Position numbers and translations under genes: made by a program. From contig JAGXNO010000069.1 of NCBI GenBank assembly GCA_019894975.1, forward strand, positions 1 to 14,357: DNA of 14,357 bases, read 5' to 3'. Source of the DNA: Promethearchaeota archaeon. GTDB taxonomy: Archaea > Asgardarchaeota > Lokiarchaeia > Sigyniarchaeales > SOKP01. The notes beneath the pieces are model-generated. The model saw nothing but the letters and a program-made list of their open reading frames with translations. It did no database searches and was not told the DNA's origin. Positions within the stretch are counted from its first letter, which is position 1. Every line of letters starts with the position of its first letter. Shown piece after piece: positions 1 through 14,357 of this stretch.

Positions 1-406
1 CTTCAGGAGTCATGGCAACAAGATCACCCTTATTGTTTAAAATATCAAAAATCTTTTCGATAGGTTCAGTATCATCTTTGCTCTCAGTTCCACGAATCAT
101 ACCAAGGCTTTTAAGGACTGGTCCTAAAATTTGATGTTTCATCATTTTCGGATCAATCATAAAATGGATTTTACGACCAGATACCTGACTGATGATTAAC
201 ATATCTCGTATGATATCACCTGCCACCGTGGTCAAAATAGCTTTTCCCCTAACTGGTATATTCTCTTTACCTTCGATTCTTAAATTCATAAAAGCTTGAA
301 AAAATAACCCACTTAAGCCTTTTACAGCACCATATAACACATCAAGAGCAATTAATTTGGGATTTAACTTATCTGAGGCTTCTGAAACTACTTGTTCTTC
401 AACCAT
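1..406 (-). CDS. Lysophospholipid acyltransferase (PlsC/LPLAT)-fold protein, 3'-truncated by the window edge; HX4D histidine absent
   Basis: Not in the ORF track. Manual translation from ATG at 406 is open to base 1: MVEEQVVSEASDKLNPKLIALDVLYGAVKGLSGLFFQAFMNLRIEGKENIPVRGKAILTTVAGDIIRDMLIISQVSGRKIHFMIDPKMMKHQILGPVLKSLGMIRGTESKDDTEPIEKIFDILNNKGDLVAMTPE. 'IEGKENIP..G.AIL', 'IHFM', 'LG..LKSLG.I' and 'LVAMTPE' match the order and spacing of PlsC blocks. AAGGTG SD-like site upstream. Confidence 0.8.
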   Translation of the reverse strand, partial: MVEEQVVSEASDKLNPKLIALDVLYGAVKGLSGLFFQAFMNLRIEGKENIPVRGKAILTTVAGDIIRDMLIISQVSGRKIHFMIDPKMMKHQILGPVLKSLGMIRGTESKDDTEPIEKIFDILNNKGDLVAMTPE

Positions 407-430
407 ATGATATTTACACCTTTTATTATA

Positions 431-625
431 TTATAACTTATCGATAAAATTGTTGACTTCTTCCATTCTTTTTTCGTAATATTCTTTTAATTCCTTTTCT
501 GATACAAAACTGGGGATAACCTTTTCAGTATATACATCAAAAATCGTACTCAATTTTGTTTTATGTCTTAAAGTTTCGAGAAATTCCTCTCCTAACTCTT
601 TTAATTGCCTTAAAAACTCTGCCAT
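431..625 (-). CDS. Small (64 aa) charged alpha-helical hypothetical protein
   Basis: ORF track gives 431..652. The ATG at 625 is more likely: it lies 4 nt after the activase stop and follows GGGAGG inside the activase 3' end. Co-oriented and tightly packed within the operon. Confidence 0.7.
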   Translation of the reverse strand: MAEFLRQLKELGEEFLETLRHKTKLSTIFDVYTEKVIPSFVSEKELKEYYEKRMEEVNNFIDKL

Positions 626-629
626 CTTC

Positions 630-1652
630 CTAAAAAACCTCCCATTTTCCACATCTACTGCCCCAACGAGCTATTACTTTATTCTCATCTTCGGGCATTT
701 TGACTTGAACGATATCGCAGTTGTTGGGGCAATCACCGCACAGAAATGCTGATGTTTTAAATTCAAGATCACCCACATTGAGACCTCGAAACACAGTTTC
801 GGTAGGATGATCTAAATAATAATCTCTTACTAAGATTGCCATTCCTAAGGCACCCATTAAAACGTTATATTTCGGAACGATGACTCTACATTCCAAATGT
901 CTTTCAAAAGCTTGAATAATCCCCTTATTGTAGGATACTCCTCCTTGAAATACAATAGGCTCTGCTAATTCTTTACCTTTTGATAAATTATTCATATAAT
1001 TTCTAACTAATGAATCACACAATCCCGCAATGATATCTTCCTTAGAATATCCAGCATTCTGCTTGTGGATCATATCTGACTCTGCAAATACTGTACACCT
1101 CCCAGCAATACTTAATGGATTTTTAGATTTTACCGCATAACTACCAAATTCCTCGATAGGGATTCCAAGCCTTGAAGCTTGATGATCAAGAAATGATCCA
1201 GTACCCGCAGCACATACAGAGTTCATAGCAAAATCAACAATTATCCCATCTCGAAGAATTATGATTTTAGAATCTTGACCTCCTATTTCTAAGATTGTTC
1301 TTACATCAGGATATAATGCCTGTGCAGCAACAGCATGGGCGATAATCTCGGTTTTAGCAAGATCGCCACCAACAATAGCTTTTGTCAGATATCTTGCTGA
1401 ACCCGTAGTTCCACAACTACGTATTTCATATCCTAGTAAATTTTCATCTTGTTCAATTTGGTTTTTTAATTGTTCCATACCCGCTTTAGCAGATTCAATC
1501 GGAGAGCCCCTATTGCGTAAAAACACACTTGTAAGTACGTTACCATCCATATCCATCAATACAAACTTACAGGTTACACTTCCAATATCTATACCGAGAA
1601 ATGCATCTTGCTTTCCACCTTCTTTAACGACTTTATCAGATACTTGTACCAT
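630..1652 (-). CDS. ATP-dependent [4Fe-4S] acyl-CoA dehydratase activase (HgdC / BadF-BadG-BcrA-BcrD ASKHA family) with C-terminal Cys cluster
   Basis: Motifs GIDIGS, TTGSAR, EIIAH, EIGGQDSK, CAAGTG, RCTVFAES, QGGV; C-terminal CGDCPNNC...RCGKW. Confidence 0.95.
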   Translation of the reverse strand: MVQVSDKVVKEGGKQDAFLGIDIGSVTCKFVLMDMDGNVLTSVFLRNRGSPIESAKAGMEQLKNQIEQDENLLGYEIRSCGTTGSARYLTKAIVGGDLAKTEIIAHAVAAQALYPDVRTILEIGGQDSKIIILRDGIIVDFAMNSVCAAGTGSFLDHQASRLGIPIEEFGSYAVKSKNPLSIAGRCTVFAESDMIHKQNAGYSKEDIIAGLCDSLVRNYMNNLSKGKELAEPIVFQGGVSYNKGIIQAFERHLECRVIVPKYNVLMGALGMAILVRDYYLDHPTETVFRGLNVGDLEFKTSAFLCGDCPNNCDIVQVKMPEDENKVIARWGSRCGKWEVF

Positions 1653-1664
1653 TTAATCACATCT

Positions 1665-2852
1665 TTATTGAGTTTGAAGTAATTGAAAGCATTCTTGAAA
1701 AAAATGAGAACCATTTGATTTATAAAAATTTCTTTGATCATCTTCCAGAGAAATATTTTCAATTCCTAGTTTATGCTTTCGTCTTGATTCAATTAGGTCT
1801 ACAAAAGCTTCTAATCTCGTCCTCATACCTTCGGTTCCACTATGCTCGTCAAAGGAAAAGAATATTATCGGGAGATCGTAGATATTTTTAAGTTTATTTG
1901 TTATAATCGTCCGAGCAGTCACTTCGGGCATACAGGTGAAAGGATACACATGGACGCACCCACTAAAGCCAGTCTGAGCTCTATCAATATATTCCCCTAA
2001 AACCCATTGGCATTCTCCTCCAATATCCATTGGAACGTACGGATGAGATAAGTGTTCTAACCATTTTCGATGAAAATTCAGATGGAATTTATGTGAAACC
2101 CAATCCCATAAGCTTAAATTTTGATGAATCTCTACACCCATTTCTCCCAATTTGCGTCTAATATCTACATTAACAAAAGGTTCTAAACTTATGTGAATTT
2201 CCCCAAAAATAGCTACTCGTAAAGGAGTTCTCGTTCTATCTACATCAATTGTGTTAAAATCTTCTTTAATTAGATTTTTAAAACTTCTTAACTCCTTAAG
2301 AGTGTTGGCCTGATCAAGCTTATTTATTACGGTGTTAAAAACTTTAGTTGTGTCTCCTTGGTTACGTTCATAAGCTCGAAACAATCCTTCTGCTGTTTGA
2401 ATATCACTCAGCAATTTTGCTTTTTTCAAGAAGAATATGACAGCTTTAACAAACTTTGAATAGGCAAATAAGTCTCTTTTACTACTTAATTCTTGGAGAG
2501 TCTTGACCCATTTAAAGTCAAGTAAGTCCGCTTGATCTAATGGGATTATATTCACATTTTTATAACCCATATCATGCAAAAGACGCTCTTGAACGGCACC
2601 ATAAAAGCCAAATCGACAAGGACCGCAATCGATGGCCATAACCAAAGTATCAGCACCCTTTTTTATGGCACTAACAAAATCACCCAAGGTAGCTTTAAAT
2701 GGAAAACAAACAAATTCAGGACTATATTTTACCCCTATTTTAATAGCTTCCCGATTAGTTGGATCTGGGAGCACAACTTCTATATCAAGTTGTTCAAATA
2801 GAGTTTTAAATGCATAAACATTGGGTCCCATGTTAGGGAATGAGAGAATCAT
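1665..2852 (-). CDS. COG3581-like Fe-S reductase/dehydratase subunit (2-hydroxyacyl-CoA dehydratase-related, PlsR-type domain)
   Basis: SFPNMG N-terminus, PEFVCFPFK, GPCRFGFY, GEIH, PFTCMPE, FDEH...TRLEAFVD. 12 nt upstream of the activase. GAGGAG SD upstream. Confidence 0.85.
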   Translation of the reverse strand: MILSFPNMGPNVYAFKTLFEQLDIEVVLPDPTNREAIKIGVKYSPEFVCFPFKATLGDFVSAIKKGADTLVMAIDCGPCRFGFYGAVQERLLHDMGYKNVNIIPLDQADLLDFKWVKTLQELSSKRDLFAYSKFVKAVIFFLKKAKLLSDIQTAEGLFRAYERNQGDTTKVFNTVINKLDQANTLKELRSFKNLIKEDFNTIDVDRTRTPLRVAIFGEIHISLEPFVNVDIRRKLGEMGVEIHQNLSLWDWVSHKFHLNFHRKWLEHLSHPYVPMDIGGECQWVLGEYIDRAQTGFSGCVHVYPFTCMPEVTARTIITNKLKNIYDLPIIFFSFDEHSGTEGMRTRLEAFVDLIESRRKHKLGIENISLEDDQRNFYKSNGSHFFQECFQLLQTQ

Positions 2853-4383: not shown

Positions 4384-5403
4384 TTGAATTCTACAGTCAA
4401 AAAAGAGGAAAAGAAACCTAAACAGGGAAAAAAAGAAAAAAAGAAGAGACAAAAGGATGTCGACGCAAGTAATTCAATTGAGGATCAAGAAGAGATAAAA
4501 AAGAGTGGTATTTTTTCCGCTTTAGACCAAATTGATACCAAGAGTAAAGAAGAAACCAGAGTAATTGAGGAGACATTAAGAGCAGGATTGATAAAAAGTG
4601 AAAAGTCCGAAAAAATAGAAGAAAGTAAGAAACCAGATATTGGTATTATAAATATTAAAAATAAAATTGAAAATCTAAGGAAAATCAAAAAGGAGCACAA
4701 TAATAAAGGGAGATTCGAAAAAGCTATTGAAATCTCCAATAAAATAGTAACAATAGCGTTTTCAAATAATTTAAAGGAGATTATCAGTGAGGAAAAGAAA
4801 TTTTTAGAGTTAATTAAAAATAACCGTTATCAAAAACCTGAAACCGTTGAAACTGTTGAAAATGAAGAAGGTTTAAGCCTAATCGAACCCACAATCCCTT
4901 CAAAACAGGTAATAGAAGAAATAGATCCTAGAAAAGATAACATAAAACTAAAATCCAATAAACCCAAATCTCAAGGTAAGGAGAAATTTGAAGAAGAAAG
5001 TCAAAGGTTCATGGAAGAAAAAGAAGTATTTAAACAGGAGAAACTAAAGCTCGAAGAAGAAAAAGAAGCATTTCAATGGGAAAAACAAATGCTAGAAGAG
5101 GTTAAAAAATATGAAAGAGATAAAGAAAAAGAACCTTCAAAAGAGGATATTGAAAATATAATAGATAAGCATGAAATCGATGAAATTAAGAAATTTGAAC
5201 AAGAGAAGGAAGATTATTTGAAAGAAAAAGCCAATCTTGAGCAACAAAAACTAAAGTTTGAAGAAAAAAGAGAAATCTTCAATCAAGAAAAATTAAAGTT
5301 CGAAGAAGAAAAAGAGACGTTTAAATGGGAAAAGCAAATGTTTGAAGAAATGAAAAAGCATGAAAGAAATAAAGAAACAAAAAGTGATGTAAATGAAAAT
5401 TAA
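4384..5403 (+). CDS. Highly charged E/K-rich helical or coiled-coil protein with internal duplication
   Basis: 339-aa ORF with TTG start and strong purine bias; two heptad-repeat blocks, each ending in WEKQM. Confidence 0.8.
   Translation: MNSTVKKEEKKPKQGKKEKKKRQKDVDASNSIEDQEEIKKSGIFSALDQIDTKSKEETRVIEETLRAGLIKSEKSEKIEESKKPDIGIINIKNKIENLRKIKKEHNNKGRFEKAIEISNKIVTIAFSNNLKEIISEEKKFLELIKNNRYQKPETVETVENEEGLSLIEPTIPSKQVIEEIDPRKDNIKLKSNKPKSQGKEKFEEESQRFMEEKEVFKQEKLKLEEEKEAFQWEKQMLEEVKKYERDKEKEPSKEDIENIIDKHEIDEIKKFEQEKEDYLKEKANLEQQKLKFEEKREIFNQEKLKFEEEKETFKWEKQMFEEMKKHERNKETKSDVNEN
4984..5379 (+). repeat. Intragenic degenerate direct repeat: two blocks offset by 249 nt, built from 21-nt units
   Basis: FKQEKLKLEEEKEAFQWEKQMLEEVKKYERDKE versus FNQEKLKFEEEKETFKWEKQMFEEMKKHERNKE; Trp codons at 5077 and 5326. 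Confidence 0.85.
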
Positions 5404-5433: not shown

Positions 5434-6234
5434 CTAATCTCTATTTATATAATCCAGAAAAGCTTTCACTACCATATGGAATTTTGGATCTGGGACTACA
5501 GTTAAATGGTCTTTTCCTTGGATTTGGAAATGGCAAGCATCTGGGACCAGCTGAGCTACTAAGGTTTTATCCCCTGGAATAAGCTCATTAGATCCTACAA
5601 CTGTCATTATAGGCACTTTTATTTTTTTTAGAGATTCCTTAATTTGAGAAGGAAAGCCCATTATTTCAGTACCCTCATTTAGTAAACCAGTTGTCACTGC
5701 TGCCAGAGCTAATAAATCATTTCCTCTTAGTTCTGCGTATTGACGGAACGCACGAGCCACAGGATCTTTAATATCATCAACACTTTCTGCTTGGAACGCT
5801 TCTATATTTCGCTTCATTCTTTTTATATTATTAGATCTTGATTTATCCTCTTGAAGTAAATTTAACACAAATCCTCCAAGAATGGCAGAGATAAAGATCT
5901 CAGGATTAGATAATAATAATCGAAATGTAATATACGCACCCATAGAATAACCAAATAAATTTGCTTTCTTAATCGAAAGGTGTTTCATAAGTTTTATAAT
6001 ATCATCATCCATTTTTTGCCCATAATAGGATCCATCGTGGGGTTTATCACTTTTTCCATGACCTCGACAATCTAATAAAACTAATCTATAATTACCTTGT
6101 AAATATTTCATCCAATTAGTTTGTTTCCAATTACCTTCAAGACTCGATGCAAATCCATGGATCATTACAACTGGAGGTCCTTCTCCTTCTATTTCATAAT
6201 AGATCTTAACTCCATCATTATCAAAATACGGCAT
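5434..6234 (-). CDS. Alpha/beta fold hydrolase
   Basis: HGF oxyanion motif, DCRGHGKSDKP, GYSMG nucleophile elbow, GSNE acid, C-terminal DH His. Confidence 0.93.
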   Translation of the reverse strand: MPYFDNDGVKIYYEIEGEGPPVVMIHGFASSLEGNWKQTNWMKYLQGNYRLVLLDCRGHGKSDKPHDGSYYGQKMDDDIIKLMKHLSIKKANLFGYSMGAYITFRLLLSNPEIFISAILGGFVLNLLQEDKSRSNNIKRMKRNIEAFQAESVDDIKDPVARAFRQYAELRGNDLLALAAVTTGLLNEGTEIMGFPSQIKESLKKIKVPIMTVVGSNELIPGDKTLVAQLVPDACHFQIQGKDHLTVVPDPKFHMVVKAFLDYINRD

Positions 6235-6246
6235 ATCAATATATCC

Positions 6247-6531
6247 TTATTCTTCTTTTATCCTTCTTAATTCAATTTTAACTAAATTGAATTTATCCAT
6301 ACACTCCATATTAACAACGTCAGGATTTCCACCCCATTGTTTAGGAAATCCTCCTCCAAATTGAAGCATGGTAATATATGGGAATAAATCATGATAAAAA
6401 AAACCACATAATCCTCCCGCACTATGCCCACTTAATTCTATTTCATCTCCTACTTTATGACCCGCATTACAATTACCTTTTACTTCTTTTATTGTTCCTA
6501 CAACTCTGTAGCCAACCTTTACATCACTCAT
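6247..6531 (-). CDS. TIGR04076-family small Cys-rich protein
   Basis: VKGNCNAGHKVGD, GLCGFFYHDLFPY, ECMD pattern. GAGGT SD upstream. 12 nt from the hydrolase start. Confidence 0.85.
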   Translation of the reverse strand: MSDVKVGYRVVGTIKEVKGNCNAGHKVGDEIELSGHSAGGLCGFFYHDLFPYITMLQFGGGFPKQWGGNPDVVNMECMDKFNLVKIELRRIKEE

Positions 6532-6649
6532 TTAATACTACCTCATTTAAATCTAATTTTATATAATTTTAAGTTTGATTAATTATAGTGTTATTATTAT
6601 ACAATTAATTTAAATCAACTCCTTTAACTTTTGATTTATCGTGATCTAA

Positions 6650-8146
6650 ATGCTAAAATTACACGATTTAGGACAGCCAATAGAATTCTGGGATTATTTT
6701 GAGCAAATTTCAAAAATTCCACGTTGCTCTCAACATGAAGAAAAAATTAGAAATTTTATCCAAGGAGAAGGTAAAAAATTGGGATTTAAGACTAAAGTGG
6801 ATGAAATTGGTAATCTCGCAATAAGTATTCCCGCAAAATCCGTTGAAAAAGAAAAATTAATTTTACAATGTCATATGGATATGGTCTGCGAGAAGAATAA
6901 TGATGTAGTTCACGATTTCTCAAATGATCCGTTGAAATTAAAGATTATTGAGATTGAAAATAAAAAATGGCTAACTGCTGAAGGTACTACCCTAGGAGCT
7001 GATAATGGTACAGGAATATGTTTCAATCTTTCACTCATGAAAAAAATTCATGATGGTTCAATGAAATTTGATTCATTAAGCTTGGAATTATTATTTACTG
7101 TACTTGAAGAATTTAACCTAGGTGGTGCTAAAAATATCGATAAATCTTTAGTGAACGGAGATATGCTTATCAATCTCGACTCTGGGGGAGAGGGTAGAAT
7201 TACAAATGGTTGCACAGGTGGTATTGGGTTTATTGCTGATATTAAAACTAAACCTGTTTCTGTTGAGACACTAGAGGGCAATTTTATACCCCATCAGTTA
7301 ACTTTGAGTGGTTTAATTGGGGGACATTCTGGCGGAGATATTACGAGAGGTAGAGGAAATGCCAATAAACTCTTATGTCATATCCTTTGGAAGTTACATC
7401 AAAATTACTCGATTTATATTAACTCTATTAATGGAGGAAATGCTGCTAATGCCATTACGCGAGAAGCTTATTCGATACTTTTTTTAAAAGAAGGAGAGTT
7501 TTCAGAAATTAGATCTTACATTAATAGCCTCTTTATTGAATTAAAGAAAAATTATGAGGGAATTGAGGAAAATATGCGGTTTTCGATAGAAGAAGTTGAT
7601 ACAGGAGATATTGATACTGTTTTTTCTAAAGATATTCAAGGAACATTACTAGATCTTTTATATATAATTCCTAGTGGTCCTCTATCAACTCATCCAAAGA
7701 TCAGAGTGTTTGCCTTAGCATCAACCAATATAGGAATAATAAAAACGGAAAAAGATTACATTAGGATAAGGATGCTTCATCGAAGCTTTAGCAAATACTA
7801 CAATGAAAATACGTGTGAGCAAATTATTACCTTATTACAAATGTCTGGGCTTGATATGGAGAGGAAAATAACTGGAGGATATCCTCCTTGGGAACCAAAG
7901 TTTGATTCTAAACTTCTAAAAGTGGCAAAGAAAACTTATATGAAGTTATTCAAGCAAGAAGCTTCAATAATAATGATACAAGGGGGTTTAGAGCCAACAT
8001 TTTTAATAAATTTAAATCCAAAGATGGAAGCAATAGCAATTGGACCGACTGCTTCAAACGTTCATTCCCCTAATGAACGGTTATATGTAGATTCTGTTGA
8101 AAACACTTGGAAATTTCTTACTAATATCCTAAAAAAGTTAGACTAA
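6650..8146 (+). CDS. pepD: Aminoacyl-histidine (beta-Ala-His) dipeptidase, peptidase M20C
   Basis: IPRCS, QCHMDMVCEK, GTTLGADNG, EE, NLDS, GGHSG, RGNANK, YPPWEP, HSPNE. Confidence 0.93.
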   Translation: MLKLHDLGQPIEFWDYFEQISKIPRCSQHEEKIRNFIQGEGKKLGFKTKVDEIGNLAISIPAKSVEKEKLILQCHMDMVCEKNNDVVHDFSNDPLKLKIIEIENKKWLTAEGTTLGADNGTGICFNLSLMKKIHDGSMKFDSLSLELLFTVLEEFNLGGAKNIDKSLVNGDMLINLDSGGEGRITNGCTGGIGFIADIKTKPVSVETLEGNFIPHQLTLSGLIGGHSGGDITRGRGNANKLLCHILWKLHQNYSIYINSINGGNAANAITREAYSILFLKEGEFSEIRSYINSLFIELKKNYEGIEENMRFSIEEVDTGDIDTVFSKDIQGTLLDLLYIIPSGPLSTHPKIRVFALASTNIGIIKTEKDYIRIRMLHRSFSKYYNENTCEQIITLLQMSGLDMERKITGGYPPWEPKFDSKLLKVAKKTYMKLFKQEASIIMIQGGLEPTFLINLNPKMEAIAIGPTASNVHSPNERLYVDSVENTWKFLTNILKKLD

Positions 8147-8158
8147 TACGTTTTATAA

Positions 8159-9568
8159 TCAGGGTTTTGAGTCCATCCACCGAGTATCAGCATTCCATTG
8201 CTCTAATAATTTTTCTAGGTCAAATCGACAGTCTTTATGTTGATTAGAGTCAGCTAAGTTATTGTATTCAAACGGATCCTCTTTCAAATCAAAAAACTTT
8301 ATCCTTTCATTAGTAAATTTACGGTTCTTCACATCGAAACTCTTCCCAAAAACATATTCTGGAGTACGGATGGCGATTTCTTGTCGAGTTGATTCAATAA
8401 ATGTGTAATTTTTTTCAAGGACTGCGATTTCTCCGTGGATGATTGGAGTAAGGCTCTGTCCTTGAACATGTTCAGGAATATCGATGCCTACTAAATCCAT
8501 AATTGTCGGTGTGATATCTACCAGCGATGCTACCTGTTGATTAGCAACCTTTCCATTAGTCATTCCTGGAACACACCATATATATGGGATCCTAGATGAT
8601 TCTTGGTTGTATCCTCCTTTTTGCCACCAACCATGGCTACCAAGATTATCCCCATGGTCTGCAGTGAAGATAACAATAGTATTTTCTTCGAGTCCAGCTT
8701 TCTTCAGATTTTCAAGAAGTTTACCGATAGTATCGTCGACCCAGCTTGTTGAACCATAATATAAAGCATACAAGTGACGTAAATCAAAACCTTCTGGAAG
8801 TTTTTCTGTATAAGGTAGACCAAGATTGTAATATTTAAAATCATATAAGTATGATTGGAAATTTAGAGGTTCATGAACCATTTCCCCATCGATAATAGCA
8901 TTCTCTCGGATCGGCATATCCTCTGGTTTATACATTCTCTTATACCGATCCGGGATATCATCATACGGAAGATGGGGTGGAGAGATATTATAAAAGAGGA
9001 AGAATGGGTTTTCGGAGTTTTTATGTGACTGAAGAAACTCACCTACTTTCTTGGCTTCATAATCCACACTGAATCCCTCTGGAACGAACTCACGACCTCC
9101 ATTTTCCGTAAAACTCTGACCAATCTGACAATGTTGGACTCTTGGTATTAGATAATAATCAAATCCAACATCATGAGGCCAAGAATGGATGTGCCACTTC
9201 CCAATGGTTGCAGTGTAGTAACCATTAGAACGTAAGATTTCTGGCAAAGTAAGATCTCTGAGATGTGGTCTTCCCCTCATTGGATAAAATGGTAAGATCC
9301 AGCGACTACCAAATGATATCAGTGAAACCTCGTTGTTGAAGTGACCACAACATCTTCGACTATATTCCCCCGATAGCATAATTGATCTCGCTGGCATACA
9401 AACAGGACTGTTAGATACAGCAGTTTCGAATCTTAAACCTTTACCTGCTAGACTGTCAATATTTGGAGTTTGGATAACCTCATTTCCATAACAATGTACT
9501 TCAAATGCTCTAAGTTGATCACAAGTACATAAAACAATATTAGGTCGTTTATTCTTTGAATCATTCAT
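8159..9568 (-). CDS. Cys-type (formylglycine-dependent) sulfatase, no signal peptide
   Basis: RPNIV..CDQLR, CMPAR (CxPxR), GKWH, PPHLP, ADHG, QKG, DLKEDPFEYNNL. Confidence 0.95.
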   Translation of the reverse strand: MNDSKNKRPNIVLCTCDQLRAFEVHCYGNEVIQTPNIDSLAGKGLRFETAVSNSPVCMPARSIMLSGEYSRRCCGHFNNEVSLISFGSRWILPFYPMRGRPHLRDLTLPEILRSNGYYTATIGKWHIHSWPHDVGFDYYLIPRVQHCQIGQSFTENGGREFVPEGFSVDYEAKKVGEFLQSHKNSENPFFLFYNISPPHLPYDDIPDRYKRMYKPEDMPIRENAIIDGEMVHEPLNFQSYLYDFKYYNLGLPYTEKLPEGFDLRHLYALYYGSTSWVDDTIGKLLENLKKAGLEENTIVIFTADHGDNLGSHGWWQKGGYNQESSRIPYIWCVPGMTNGKVANQQVASLVDITPTIMDLVGIDIPEHVQGQSLTPIIHGEIAVLEKNYTFIESTRQEIAIRTPEYVFGKSFDVKNRKFTNERIKFFDLKEDPFEYNNLADSNQHKDCRFDLEKLLEQWNADTRWMDSKP

Positions 9569-9677
9569 TTTTTCTTTCTAACAGACAAATATATATCTAT
9601 TTTAAAATGGCTTAATTTAATATCATAATAAAATCTTTACATTATTATCACCTTTTAGGGGATTAAAATTGGGAAAC

Positions 9678-10397
9678 ATGACTAAATTAGCAATTATATC
9701 AGACATTCATGCAAATAAATATGCACTTGAAAGCTTTCTTCAATACAATGAAAAGAATTTTCAAGCAGATAAAATATTAAATTTAGGGGACTTTGTAGCA
9801 ATTGGTCCTCATCCTAAAGAAGTAGTTCAAACCATTTTTAATGATAAAAGATTCGAAAACATAATTGGAAATAATGATATGATTGTATTGGGAAAACGAA
9901 AAGATGAATGGCGAAGGCCAACCCAACCTCATCATGAATGGATAGCTGATCAACTTGGAAAAGATCTACTTGAAGTTATAGAAAAAATTCCTACCTCAAA
10001 ATACATTGATGTGAACGGAAAAAAACTATTGATGCTTCACTCACATTTCTATGACACTCCTAACAGATCATTCTTGGATAACCTTTTAATATATCAAGGA
10101 AAAACTCTTGAAGAATTTATAAATGATTATCCAGAAGATGTAGATATAGTACTGGTTGGACATTCTCATTTACAATTATATATTAATTGGAAGAAGAAGA
10201 CAATTATAAATCCCGGATCAATTAGTATAACTTGGAAACCATTAGCATCCTTTTGTTTATTAGAGATTGATGATGAGAGCATAAATGTTAATTTTAAAAA
10301 TATACCTTACGATTATTCTAAATTAAAGCAAGATTATGATGATAACAAAGTTGTGGCAAGGGAATGGTTAATTAAATATTTTTATCCCTTTATTTGA
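9678..10397 (+). CDS. Calcineurin-like metallophosphoesterase (YfcE/MJ0936-like)
   Basis: SDIHAN, LGDFV, GNND, LH, GHSH, INPGS. ATG at 9678 preferred to TTG at 9669. Confidence 0.92.
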   Translation: MTKLAIISDIHANKYALESFLQYNEKNFQADKILNLGDFVAIGPHPKEVVQTIFNDKRFENIIGNNDMIVLGKRKDEWRRPTQPHHEWIADQLGKDLLEVIEKIPTSKYIDVNGKKLLMLHSHFYDTPNRSFLDNLLIYQGKTLEEFINDYPEDVDIVLVGHSHLQLYINWKKKTIINPGSISITWKPLASFCLLEIDDESINVNFKNIPYDYSKLKQDYDDNKVVAREWLIKYFYPFI

Positions 10398-10430
10398 TTA
10401 TAAAATTTAAATGAAATTTATCTCAGAATT

Positions 10431-10441
10431 AAAAAAAAAAA
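10431..10441 (-). terminator. Oligo-T (T11) archaeal-type terminator candidate
   Basis: A11 run on the + strand about 35 nt downstream of the CocE/NonD stop, between convergent genes. Confidence 0.5.
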
Positions 10442-10474
10442 TAAAATTTAAAAATGGATGTATCAACAGAATCT

Positions 10475-12511
10475 TTAAGTTTTAAATATTATCTTACGTC
10501 CAGTTGCTATTATTTTTGAACCTCTTTTAATCACGACTAAGCTTCCGAGTTCTCCTCTGCAAATATATATTTCATTCTTTCCTATCTCCCAGTGTCGAAT
10601 AATGTTCCACTTCTCCCATTGACCTTCAAAACTCAAATAAACCGCATTGTCATATATATGGAATTCAGCAGGACCTTTATATTTATCATCATGGGTTGTA
10701 ATTCTTAGATTTCCTTCAAATACATTAGTATCTTGATGTACTATAGGGAGAACTATATATGAAAAGAACTCATCATCATGAAAGATTGTGTTAAGTGCGA
10801 TTAGAATGTCTTCATCCGTTTCTGTATATAATTCACCCCCAGTATTAAGGTTGCGATCGTGTTTGGGGAAATTACTGCTGGAAATATCAACTTGAATACG
10901 GTGTCCTGCCATGAATACATGACTCATATCACCTAAATTTATTTCAAATTCATAAATCATGCCTGGTGACATTAAATCAGGATCACTCATTGATTCTCGA
11001 AATCTTGCTCTTAGAATTCCATCACCAACCAACATTGCGTTCCCATCGGGATGAACGTCTATTAGCTTAGCAGTAAAATCTGTATCAGTACAATTTGAGG
11101 AAGCACTTAGCACTACCTCGATAGGACCAGAAATCTCAAGATTATCTGTTAGCTCGTCGCTGGTATAGATAAGAATATCTTCTCTCCCCGTCTCCACTGG
11201 TCTTTGATCAAATGATCCTGCTGGTATTCCAAGGTTTCTTCCACCCCTCGTAAGTACCGGATTCGCTGGATCATAAATGAAACTTTCAGGTATTTCACTA
11301 TCAATAGATAATTCTGTATTAAGAATTCCGTCTTCATGTAAGTAATAATTAGTCCATTCGATTCCTCCCAAGGGCCACTGATCAGCCCATCGCCACTCAT
11401 CTAATCCGTGAACATAGTAGTAGACTGAGGGTTCATCCATTATTCCTGTATCTTCACCTTGTAACCAATAATCAAACCAATTATAATAGAGACTATAATA
11501 GAGATCAGATGGAAGACCTAATCCTCCATGAGTTCCAGGTGCCACATACAATTTTTGGTTTCCTTTATCTTGCAGAGCTACAAATGCATCTATTGAAGGT
11601 CTGGAAAAAAAGTCGTACCAACCTGCCACATGTATCATAGGAATATTTATTGCATCTTGAACATTGAGTTTATTTCGAAACTCATCCTGATTAGGATGAG
11701 ACATTATTTCATCACCAAATGGTTGTAACGCAGTGAAACTAGGATCTCCAGCTCTCAGAGGAAGGTTGGTCCATGTTGCTGAATCTAGGGCTGTATATCC
11801 AGGAGTTAAAGACGTATGTGTCATTAAATCGATAAGACTACCATAAAGATCTCCTAAGTAAGCAGGAATATTCCATGGATCTGGTACAGTACCAAGATGT
11901 GAACTAGATAGACCAGATAAAGTTTGAGAATATGTCCATATCAAGGAATCCTGCCTATAAGCACCTCCGTCAAAAGTTACATCATTATAAAGGTTCGCAC
12001 TTGCAACATACGATAATGCCGTAATTAAATGGGGGGGATTCTCACCGGCTGCTAAATATGTAGTAATACCTGAAGCTGAACCTCCATGAATACCAACTTT
12101 TCCGTTGCACCAAGGTTGGGATGCAACCCATTCAATTGCATCGTAACCATCAGGTCCATCATCATAAAAGAGACGATCCACACCTTCAGATGCATATCTA
12201 CCTCTTGTATCCTGGGCAACATATACGTATCCATGAAGTATATCATCTGGCCATTGAGTTAAATTTGTTGGATCCGGGGCATCTCCAGGAGCACCGATTC
12301 CGTATGGAGTTCTTGTAATTATAGCGGGGTATTTTCCAGGTCCCGGACGATAAATTCTTGTATATAAACGGACACCATCACGCATCGGTACCATTTCTTC
12401 TAAAAATATTGGTTCATCTGGATTAGCATTCACTGATGGAATTGTAATAATAAAAAATCCACAAATGACAATGAGGAGAGTAAAACTCACAATTTTAACA
12501 TTTTTTCTCAT
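10475..12511 (-). CDS. Secreted CocE/NonD family serine hydrolase (peptidase S15-like) with an extra C-terminal domain
   Basis: Signal peptide MRKNVK-hydrophobic-VNA; MRDGVRL, RTPY, QDTRGRYASEG, GGSASG nucleophile, GWYD, GTHG, PepX_C-like GHRIQVDISSSNFP. Confidence 0.93.
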   Translation of the reverse strand: MRKNVKIVSFTLLIVICGFFIITIPSVNANPDEPIFLEEMVPMRDGVRLYTRIYRPGPGKYPAIITRTPYGIGAPGDAPDPTNLTQWPDDILHGYVYVAQDTRGRYASEGVDRLFYDDGPDGYDAIEWVASQPWCNGKVGIHGGSASGITTYLAAGENPPHLITALSYVASANLYNDVTFDGGAYRQDSLIWTYSQTLSGLSSSHLGTVPDPWNIPAYLGDLYGSLIDLMTHTSLTPGYTALDSATWTNLPLRAGDPSFTALQPFGDEIMSHPNQDEFRNKLNVQDAINIPMIHVAGWYDFFSRPSIDAFVALQDKGNQKLYVAPGTHGGLGLPSDLYYSLYYNWFDYWLQGEDTGIMDEPSVYYYVHGLDEWRWADQWPLGGIEWTNYYLHEDGILNTELSIDSEIPESFIYDPANPVLTRGGRNLGIPAGSFDQRPVETGREDILIYTSDELTDNLEISGPIEVVLSASSNCTDTDFTAKLIDVHPDGNAMLVGDGILRARFRESMSDPDLMSPGMIYEFEINLGDMSHVFMAGHRIQVDISSSNFPKHDRNLNTGGELYTETDEDILIALNTIFHDDEFFSYIVLPIVHQDTNVFEGNLRITTHDDKYKGPAEFHIYDNAVYLSFEGQWEKWNIIRHWEIGKNEIYICRGELGSLVVIKRGSKIIATGRKIIFKT

Positions 12512-13231: not shown

Positions 13232-14357
13232 TTAGCTTTCGACTTCTTGTATTAATAATTCATTCTTCTTTTTACGTACTCTTTTAGCTTGAATAGCAAT
13301 AGTTTCAAGAAGTCTTCGCTGATTTGTTGAGATCCATGGACCTTCACAATCAATTGCGGCATATGGAATATCAACCTTGTTAACTAATGGCCGTATAATA
13401 GCTTGTGAATTCATTGCCGGTTGACAATTAAACGTTCCCATGTTAACTAGACCATCGTAAATATCCTCCTCAATTGAATGTAAAAATCGACCAACGATTA
13501 TTGGTGTTTCACTAAGGCTATTTGAGGAAACATATTCACTACCTTTCTCAAAGAGATCAATAAAACCTATAAATGGGTCAAATAACAGTCCTGATTTTCT
13601 CATCTGTTTTCTGAAAGTTTTACATTGAGAATTTAAAAAGTCTAAAGCACTTCTGTTTCTTCTTGCTCTAATAACTTCTTTTTGGTCATCTTCAACCAAA
13701 TCCTCTGCTGTATATAATTTGCTATTATATTGTTCTTTTGGAGTTATATATCCCTTTTTAAACCCGTACCTTATTGAGCTTTCTGCCAATATTAAACTCA
13801 TAGTTTCCACTATATCCACAACTTTCGGAATAACTCCTTTCTCAAGAAAGAATTCTTCCACAGGATAATGATCAAACATTAGATTTAATCCACCAAAAAT
13901 TAAAACTTTTGGGGTTTCTTCAACAGTAGCTTTAAGAGGTATTTTTGATACCTCTCTTGCCCATCTGATTAAACCAGTGTTTAAGGTTTTCTTTTCTTCT
14001 TTTATATTGGTTATAAAATCACTAGTTATATCTTCAAATTTTTCCAAAGCAATTTCTTTATTTTCAGCAACACATTGCAAAGCGTTTCGAGCTTCGATTA
14101 GATATTGGCCAAGGATGAAATTAAGATTTTCCCATGCAAGTAAATCACGATTTAATCCCAGATAACCATTAGTATACTTAGGGAAAGCGCAAAAAATCAC
14201 ATTCTTTAAGTTTAATCGCTGTGAAAATATATCCCAAAGAGCTGGCCAAGCTCCATTCTGGCACGGACCGTGATTATCTATTGGTGTTCTATAAATAATA
14301 ATTTCGTCTTCACTTCTATGCTCAGAAATATCTTTTAAAACTGCACCAGCTATACCC
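13232..14357 (-). CDS. C-terminal part of a COG3581-like Fe-S reductase/dehydratase protein (possibly a multidomain activase fusion), 5'-truncated by the window edge
   Basis: The frame stays open beyond the listed start at 14200 to the window edge (GIAGAVLKDISEHRSEDEIIIYRTPIDNHGPCQNGAWPALWDIF...). GPCQNG, PKVLIFGG, GTFNCQP and IDCEG...RLLE parallel GPCRFG, RVAIFGE, PFTCMP and FDEH...RLE of 1665..2852. Confidence 0.8.
   Translation of the reverse strand, partial: GIAGAVLKDISEHRSEDEIIIYRTPIDNHGPCQNGAWPALWDIFSQRLNLKNVIFCAFPKYTNGYLGLNRDLLAWENLNFILGQYLIEARNALQCVAENKEIALEKFEDITSDFITNIKEEKKTLNTGLIRWAREVSKIPLKATVEETPKVLIFGGLNLMFDHYPVEEFFLEKGVIPKVVDIVETMSLILAESSIRYGFKKGYITPKEQYNSKLYTAEDLVEDDQKEVIRARRNRSALDFLNSQCKTFRKQMRKSGLLFDPFIGFIDLFEKGSEYVSSNSLSETPIIVGRFLHSIEEDIYDGLVNMGTFNCQPAMNSQAIIRPLVNKVDIPYAAIDCEGPWISTNQRRLLETIAIQAKRVRKKKNELLIQEVES

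Follow-up and report, generated by a model that had tools for sequence, protein, structure and literature searches.

Asgard archaea are the closest archaeal relatives of eukaryotes, and their possible capacity to make ester lipids has been deduced from the presence of PlsC genes. Asgard PlsC homologs were cited as evidence for the possible occurrence of bacterial-type ester lipids (PMC6737245; PMC13400652), and the latter paper attributes the same argument to Coleman et al. 2019 (PMC6431249). Systems that modify ester lipids have also been described: in anaerobes PlsA/PlsR turn diacyl lipids into plasmalogens (PMC9702350), the layout of PlsA being Act1/Act2/Red1/Red2 (PMC12838417), and Ger, which converts esters to alkyl ethers in Thermotoga, has reported homologs in Lokiarchaeota, including Prometheoarchaeum (PMC13159169). 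In this work we analysed the first 14,357 bases (the window) of contig JAGXNO010000069.1 (C141) of a Promethearchaeota archaeon of the class Lokiarchaeia, whose assembly (GCA_019894975.1) comprises 3.9 Mb in 175 contigs. The gene at the very start of the window, read from the minus strand, codes for a protein of the lysophospholipid acyltransferase (LPLAT) fold, the fold of PlsC, as judged from a structural model, and this protein lacks the histidine of the HX4D motif. We refer to it as the His-less LPLAT. Probably it assists neighbouring lipid enzymes without being a catalyst itself, and it should be left out when working 'PlsC' proteins are counted.

Fold, motif loss and conservation of the His-less LPLAT

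The catalytic motifs were examined in a MAFFT alignment of 21 members of the His-less clade and their 48 nearest His-bearing relatives, collected by an exhaustive hidden Markov model search of 1.84 billion representatives. Motif I, canonically N-H-x-S-x-x-D, reads V-A-G-D-I-I-R-D in the window protein (within TTVAGDIIRD, residues 59-68, positions 203..232, minus strand) and is longer by one residue. The column of the catalytic His is occupied by A, S or T in all 21 clade members and by H in all 48 canonical relatives, and the Asn column contains V or I in the clade (N in 48/48 relatives). The Asp of the motif, Asp68, is retained in 21/21 clade members and is present in 47/48 relatives. In the region of motif II (LGMIRGTE, positions 83..106, minus strand) the canonical G-x-x-P-V-x-R is matched by G-M-I-R-G-T-E. 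In the MAFFT alignment the clade-invariant Arg105 falls at G+3 and not at the canonical G+6; R-G would be paired if the gaps were placed differently. Motif III begins with MTPE (residues 132-135, positions 2..13, minus strand), and its orthologous form is T-P-E-[G/A/S]-[K/R]-x in place of F-P-E-G-T-R. Among the 48 canonical relatives F is found in 48, P in 44, E in 42 and G in 48 sequences, whereas the Phe is absent from all 21 clade members and the Gly is kept only in part; in the wider clade even the Glu is lost in some sequences (MTPQ in loci L036 and L038, MIPID in sequence P0127). Motif IV, PxxP in the canonical relatives, lies past the window end and could be read in the orthologs only; it is preserved as A-P-I-I-P-[IV]-A-I, with both prolines in 21/21 sequences.

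The open reading frame (ORF) starts with an ATG at 406-404 and stays open to base 2 of the window (2..406, minus strand). Its 135 codons represent the first part (~60%) of a protein of ~230 amino acids, the C-terminal part of which lies beyond the contig end. We found 308 homologs, nearly all 227-236 amino acids long, with 68-95% identity across the 135 residues of the window protein, and a DNA contig from another metagenome run, 100% identical to the window, reaches 552 nucleotides past window base 1. It follows from these two observations that the frame is cut by the contig end and not by a lesion. On the other contigs of the same assembly nothing homologous to the absent C-terminal part was found.

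The Pfam profile PF01553 scored below its threshold with the window fragment (20.8 bits, cut-off 23, E 3.5e-4), and above it with the full-length orthologs P0002 (38.7 bits), P0058 (35.3 bits) and P0115 (31.8 bits). The PlsC-specific profile TIGR00530 (AGP_acyltrn) gave 34.4 bits with P0002, far from its cut-off of 102.95. A search of the PDB sequences with the family profile yielded no acyltransferase, the sole match, YegS (E 0.56), being noise, thus the fold had to be searched at the level of structure. The AlphaFold2 model of P0002, which is 94% identical to the part encoded in the window, had a pLDDT of 89.5 and a pTM of 0.85. Its top structural match was T. maritima PlsC (5KYM; Foldseek probability 1.0, TM 0.57; by VIA-align Z 16.2 and root mean square deviation 4.6 over 192 residues), and the next matches, with Z between 9.5 and 13.9, were GPAT1, chain T of 7ZKQ, a plant GPAT, PatA and LpxM. 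We take the 7ZKQ chain to be tafazzin in a complex I assembly intermediate. Unrelated folds reached Z values of 6.3 at most, and the model, with this gap to 5KYM and the other acyltransferases, places the window protein in the LPLAT/PlsC alpha/beta fold. A membrane anchor was considered and rejected: the prediction gave no transmembrane segment, and the hydrophobicity of the N-terminal helix is only moderate (KD19 1.6 in P0002, median 1.06 over 28 orthologs), hence a role in anchoring is not supported.

The His-less gene is maintained under strong purifying selection and shows no decay. The median ratio of nonsynonymous to synonymous substitution rates (dN/dS) was 0.096 (Nei-Gojobori, 52 ortholog pairs, dS 0.05-1.5), and the mean column identity of the family is 81%. 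A ~90%-identical relative from a metatranscriptome differs from the window mostly at coordinates equal to 2 mod 3, that is, at third codon positions. The clade is monophyletic (SH-aLRT 100) and sits on a long stem, thus the catalytic His was lost once and this state has been kept since. In a sample of 200 genomes of the phylum the gene was present in 38 of the 40 genomes of the window's own GTDB family (f1), in all nine sampled genera. Outside f1 the sample contained only one contig-edge fragment, and the weak matches in the sister family f2 were canonical LPLATs, so the His-less family is nearly confined to one Lokiarchaeial family. The public orthologs are named as Promethearchaeota or Lokiarchaeota, and some metagenome-assembled genomes carry the labels Thor-, Hod-, Odin- or Hermodarchaeota.

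The truncated ORF and the failure of the fragment to reach the Pfam threshold might raise the suspicion of a pseudogene in decay, or of an artefact of annotation or assembly. We give this idea practically no credence: the truncation is the contig end, the 308 homologs are of full length (~230 amino acids), the structural model is confident, and contigs from RNA libraries extend over the gene. The dN/dS value of ~0.1 led us to reject decay altogether. The original prediction, made from the sequence of the window, thus described the gene correctly in most respects. The missing HX4D His with the retained Asp (His in 0/21 clade members), the change of FPEGT to MTPE and the PlsC fold were all borne out, and the His loss proved to be conserved under purifying selection; of the outcomes named beforehand as refuting the prediction, none of those open to computation occurred. 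The reported intact frame of 135 codons is indeed open, its length, however, merely marks where the contig stops. The protein had also been called unannotated, which does not hold, because the orthologs are named 'lysophospholipid acyltransferase family protein' by NCBI and '1-acyl-sn-glycerol-3-phosphate acyltransferase' by JGI.

Could the His-less LPLAT still be an enzyme, an acyltransferase, a transacylase or a related hydrolase, which uses another base? The candidates would be Asp68 together with a migrated residue (His81 or Glu135), or substrate-assisted catalysis. Asp68 and Arg105 are invariant and Glu135 is present in most orthologs, the high column identity and the low dN/dS would suit an enzyme, and migrated catalytic residues have been described for pseudoenzymes in a review (PMC10211241). 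Moreover, one of the 28 genome-derived orthologs (L030) reads SHNALRD, which is literally the HX4D spacing. Several of these points lose force on closer look. His81 (in KIHFM) is also the consensus of the canonical relatives (RxIHFMAK), thus it is not a substitute base specific to the clade. His91 (N, Q or Y) and Glu135 (Q or I) vary inside the clade, and the Phe and, in part, the Gly of motif III, invariant in the 48 canonical relatives, are lost. The His of L030 occupies the most variable position of the motif (G/K/P/D/S/H), and for this reason we treat it as incidental. Heath and Rock reportedly found in 1998 that no characterised GPAT or AGPAT can do without the HX4D His. Taken together, we consider an enzyme with another base unlikely.

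The two-domain LPLAT and the reductase operon

Most genomes that carry the His-less LPLAT also code for a canonical two-domain LPLAT (2xLPLAT) of 557-558 amino acids, with the motifs NHxSHLD/FPEGTR in domain 1 and [NS]HNSEWD/YPEGTT in domain 2. It was found in 38 of the 40 f1 genomes, in 36 of them together with the His-less LPLAT. In the window's own genome the 2xLPLAT (558 amino acids; motifs SHESHLD/FPEGTR and NHNSEWD/YPEGTT) is not at the window locus, it is encoded on another contig (C14, L006 481-2157, minus strand), flanked by a 4HBT thioesterase gene and by the start of a DUF2229 Red1-like gene. A block of this type adjoins the window-type operon in other genera. The two proteins belong to the same superfamily, occur in the same gene cluster in three genera and diverge at a similar rate, as both show ~54% identity between the window's genus and genome G040. 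They differ in that the 2xLPLAT has canonical motifs in both of its domains whereas the His-less protein has a single domain, and the tree argues that the latter is no recent copy of either 2xLPLAT domain.

A direct tie between the two is suggested by P0128 (872 amino acids, NCBI MFX1450948.1, Promethearchaeota), in which three PF01553 stretches follow each other in one polypeptide. In the tree the first groups with 2xLPLAT domain 1, the second with domain 2 and the third with the His-less clade, and by this placement P0128 unites the 2xLPLAT with the His-less LPLAT in a natural fusion. Its first two domains carry HX4E (NHETETE and NHESFLE) and not HX4D.

Two genomes that are ~100% complete (G083 and G174) gave no DUF2229 match anywhere in the genome. 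They retain the order 2xLPLAT, one gene, His-less LPLAT, without the short ORF described below, and their His-less orthologs have a dN/dS of 0.062. In G083 the 2xLPLAT and the His-less LPLAT are separated by an ORF of 204 amino acids with a toxin-deaminase domain of the BURPS668_1122 type (PF14424, 4.3e-08; L035 9066-9680, minus strand).

In the window the His-less LPLAT is the final gene of a co-oriented row, in which the genes are separated by gaps of 12, 4 and 24 nucleotides. The row starts with a DUF2229/HGD-D reductase-type subunit of the PlsA/Ger-like (BCR/HAD) family, here called Red2 (1665..2852, minus strand; PF09989 2.4e-12, PF06050 weak), which shares 31-36% identity with bacterial proteins of ~700-750 amino acids named 'acyl-CoA dehydratase activase-related'. 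It is followed by an ATP-dependent activase of the BcrAD/BadFG type with a C-terminal Cys motif (630..1652, minus strand; PF01869 1.3e-49, TIGR00241 6.2e-60) and by an ORF of 64 amino acids (MAEFLRQLKELGEE...; 431..625, minus strand). The spacer of 24 nucleotides between this ORF and the His-less LPLAT (407..430, minus strand) contains, read directly, a GGTG Shine-Dalgarno-like site (417-420) 10 nucleotides 5' of the ATG. The order Red2, activase, 64-aa ORF, His-less LPLAT was found in 8 of 10 extended loci, and three genera have the full cluster: HAD-type phosphatase, 2xLPLAT, DUF2229 Red1, Red2, activase, 64-aa ORF and His-less LPLAT. DUF2229, HGD-D and a BcrAD activase are the domain set of BCR/HAD-type lipid ester reductases, and by similarity at the family level the neighbouring genes would constitute a PlsA/Ger-like ester-to-ether module. 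Contigs from RNA libraries match the operon with 100% identity over 468-659 (X17) and with ~90% identity over 1-480, 630-1662 and 1783-2762 (X18), it must be noted that such contigs cannot prove transcription.

By tblastn the 64-aa ORF is conserved next to the His-less LPLAT, with 58-91% identity, in 29 records of related loci, a part of which come from the same genome. It had no Pfam match, only a far sub-threshold NCBIfam score (E 0.062) and no lead in the ESM Atlas; the peptide is charged and probably helical. It is absent from both genomes that lack DUF2229, and for this reason appears to belong with the reductase.

This gene arrangement could mean that the His-less LPLAT serves the PlsA/Ger-like reductase-activase alone, as an adaptor which binds lipids or presents the substrate, and that it hands the ester lipid to the iron-sulphur (Fe-S) enzyme. 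The tight operon with its well-kept order and the adjacency to the 64-aa ORF speak for such a role, as do the Ger homologs reported in Lokiarchaeota and the presence of DUF2229 in the control genomes of T. maritima, L. lactis and B. thetaiotaomicron, which produce plasmalogens or ether lipids (it was also found in the control genome of T. thermophilus). Other observations do not fit an adaptor of this kind. The constraint on the His-less gene is strong in G083 and G174, which have neither the DUF2229 gene nor the 64-aa ORF, and the sole fusion seen joins the His-less LPLAT to the 2xLPLAT. In the 80 bacterial loci that encode the closest homologs of Red1-Red2, an activase was present in 60 and an LPLAT of any kind in only 3 (within 7 kb), and these few were not of the His-less type, that is, an LPLAT partner was not a regular part of PlsA/PlsR/Ger-type loci. 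In E. coli, PlsA is functional without a partner of this sort (PMC12838417). In our judgement a dedicated reductase adaptor is rather improbable.

The sister family f2 provides a further argument. Its operon contains a canonical LPLAT (NHQSE[FL]D, FPEGTR), an LPLAT of 260-271 amino acids, Red1, Red2 and the activase, and nothing after the activase, the position that the His-less LPLAT occupies in the f1 operon, which speaks against a dedicated reductase adaptor. The 260-271-aa protein (L123 8428-9243 and L124 6478-7260, both minus strand) is most similar to 2xLPLAT domain 2, its motif I reads N-F-Q-S-x-L-D-P, with Phe in place of His, and its motif III YPEM or YPEL. Here the catalytic His was lost independently of the loss in f1. 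The pairing of a canonical with a His-less LPLAT thus recurs in this operon family.

Considering the P0128 fusion, the genomes without DUF2229, the bacterial loci and the pairing in f2, the 2xLPLAT looks like a steadier partner of the His-less LPLAT than the reductase. The original prediction had proposed, as one possibility beside a different chemistry, a non-catalytic lipid-binding or substrate-presenting subunit of the neighbouring radical enzyme. A conserved protein of PlsC fold without the canonical base agrees with the first half of this proposal, in which inactivity is deduced from the motif, and the partnership with the radical enzyme is weakened by the same DUF2229-less genomes, fusion and bacterial loci (3/80).

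Some further features of these loci should be mentioned. In genome G109 a second, divergent pair of Red2-like (444 amino acids, 40% identity) and activase-like (343 amino acids, 52% identity) genes, together with an ORF of 594 amino acids, lies directly upstream of the main operon (L042 11369-15509, minus strand), and the 444-aa Red2-like paralog recurs in several genomes of the family. At the far end of the window an ORF of 374 amino acids (13232-14356, minus strand), open at the window end, had no Pfam match at E 0.001 and resembles the C-termini of Red1 and Red2, which are HGD-D-like, only at the motif level (BLASTP E 0.02-0.07). An extremely Lys/Glu-rich, repetitive ORF of 339 amino acids (4384-5403, plus strand), also without Pfam match, has a counterpart of 44% identity in a locus of the same genus (L033). 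What remains of the window (5434-12511) consists of ordinary genes of the hydrolase type, coding for an alpha/beta hydrolase, an M20 peptidase, a sulfatase, a metallophosphoesterase, an S15 X-Pro dipeptidyl peptidase and a TrmO-like protein.

A possible role beside active acyltransferases

On balance we lean towards the view that the His-less protein is a non-catalytic LPLAT companion of the acyl-lipid module of this lineage, working chiefly with the 2xLPLAT and, where it is present, also coupled to the reductase. This view builds on the fold, the loss of the motifs, the purifying selection, the synteny, the co-occurrence and the one natural fusion. From these we infer the lack of acyl-transfer activity, the physical association with the partners and the nature of the ligand. 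According to this explanation the protein would be a catalytically degenerate LPLAT/PlsC paralog, fixed in one Lokiarchaeial family. Its chief partner would be the 2xLPLAT of a fatty-acyl glycerolipid module, and the DUF2229 reductase, its activase and the 64-aa protein, where they occur, would be further partners. Without the His the protein should be unable to run the His-Asp charge relay. An acyl chain, or the headgroup of a lysolipid or of glycerol phosphate, is probably still bound, as suggested by the kept alpha/beta scaffold, Asp68, the invariant Arg105 and the PIIP of motif IV.

Not everything is in line with a non-catalytic companion of the 2xLPLAT. Asp68, Arg105 and the mostly retained Glu135 could still build an active site, and the L030 ortholog displays the HX4D spacing. 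The P0128 fusion is one sequence from a contig of 6.4 kb, and its AlphaFold2 model (pLDDT 62.4, pTM 0.46) was too poor for domain docking. In most genomes the His-less LPLAT follows 24 nucleotides after the 64-aa ORF and the activase, and the 2xLPLAT of the window's own genus is at a separate locus, thus by operon logic the gene order favours the reductase as much as the 2xLPLAT. All these points weigh against the explanation given above.

A bolder version, which we put forward only tentatively, is that Lokiarchaeia make their fatty-acyl glycerolipids by a dedicated multi-LPLAT machine, in which catalytic domains are combined with an obligatory dead LPLAT 'prozyme' (in f1 the His-less LPLAT, in f2 the paralog with Phe in place of His), and which couples acylation to the ester-to-ether reductase. 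If this were true, it would fall to the dead subunit to bind the acyl donor or the lysolipid, the cluster would by itself give these archaea a complete route to ester or alkyl-ether lipids of the bacterial type, and the His would have been lost repeatedly as an adaptation and not by decay.

Asgard PlsC homologs and the database label of lysophosphatidic acid (LPA) acyltransferase were known before this work; in the literature that we searched we found no paper describing the missing His. The databases call these proteins acyltransferases, yet the residue that defines the chemistry is absent, therefore gene counts should separate the His-less family from the 2xLPLAT. The family would offer a clear case of an LPLAT that is degenerate and yet conserved throughout a lineage, with a second, independent loss in the sister family, and its tie to a PlsA/Ger-like module provides concrete targets for the question of which lipids Lokiarchaeia make.

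Comparison with PlsC, PlsA/Ger and prozymes

It is instructive to compare the His-less LPLAT with T. maritima PlsC. The two have the same alpha/beta fold in the model, a similar size (~230 amino acids) and an N-terminal helix, and the His-less protein has retained the Asp of motif I, the PIIP of motif IV and the RxIHFM strand. The differences are concentrated in the other motifs: the His-less protein lacks the HX4D His, has an extra residue in motif I, a displaced motif II Arg and TPE[GAS][KR] in motif III. In addition, its clade is separated by a long stem from all His-bearing relatives.

The upstream genes share building blocks with PlsA/PlsR/Ger, namely the DUF2229/HGD-D reductase domain and the BcrAD activase. 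This similarity to the experimentally tested enzymes is at the family level. PlsA/Ger systems are not known to require a partner of LPLAT fold.

The closest parallel in logic may be found in the 'prozymes', such as the companions of SCPL acyltransferases and the TbPRMT1 prozyme, in which a degenerate paralog is conserved beside an active one (PMC9541279; bioRxiv 10.1101/776112). Although the folds and organisms are unrelated, so that the analogy is one of logic only, the same pattern seems to occur here: a His-less LPLAT stands beside a canonical one in two sister families, which have lost the catalytic His independently.

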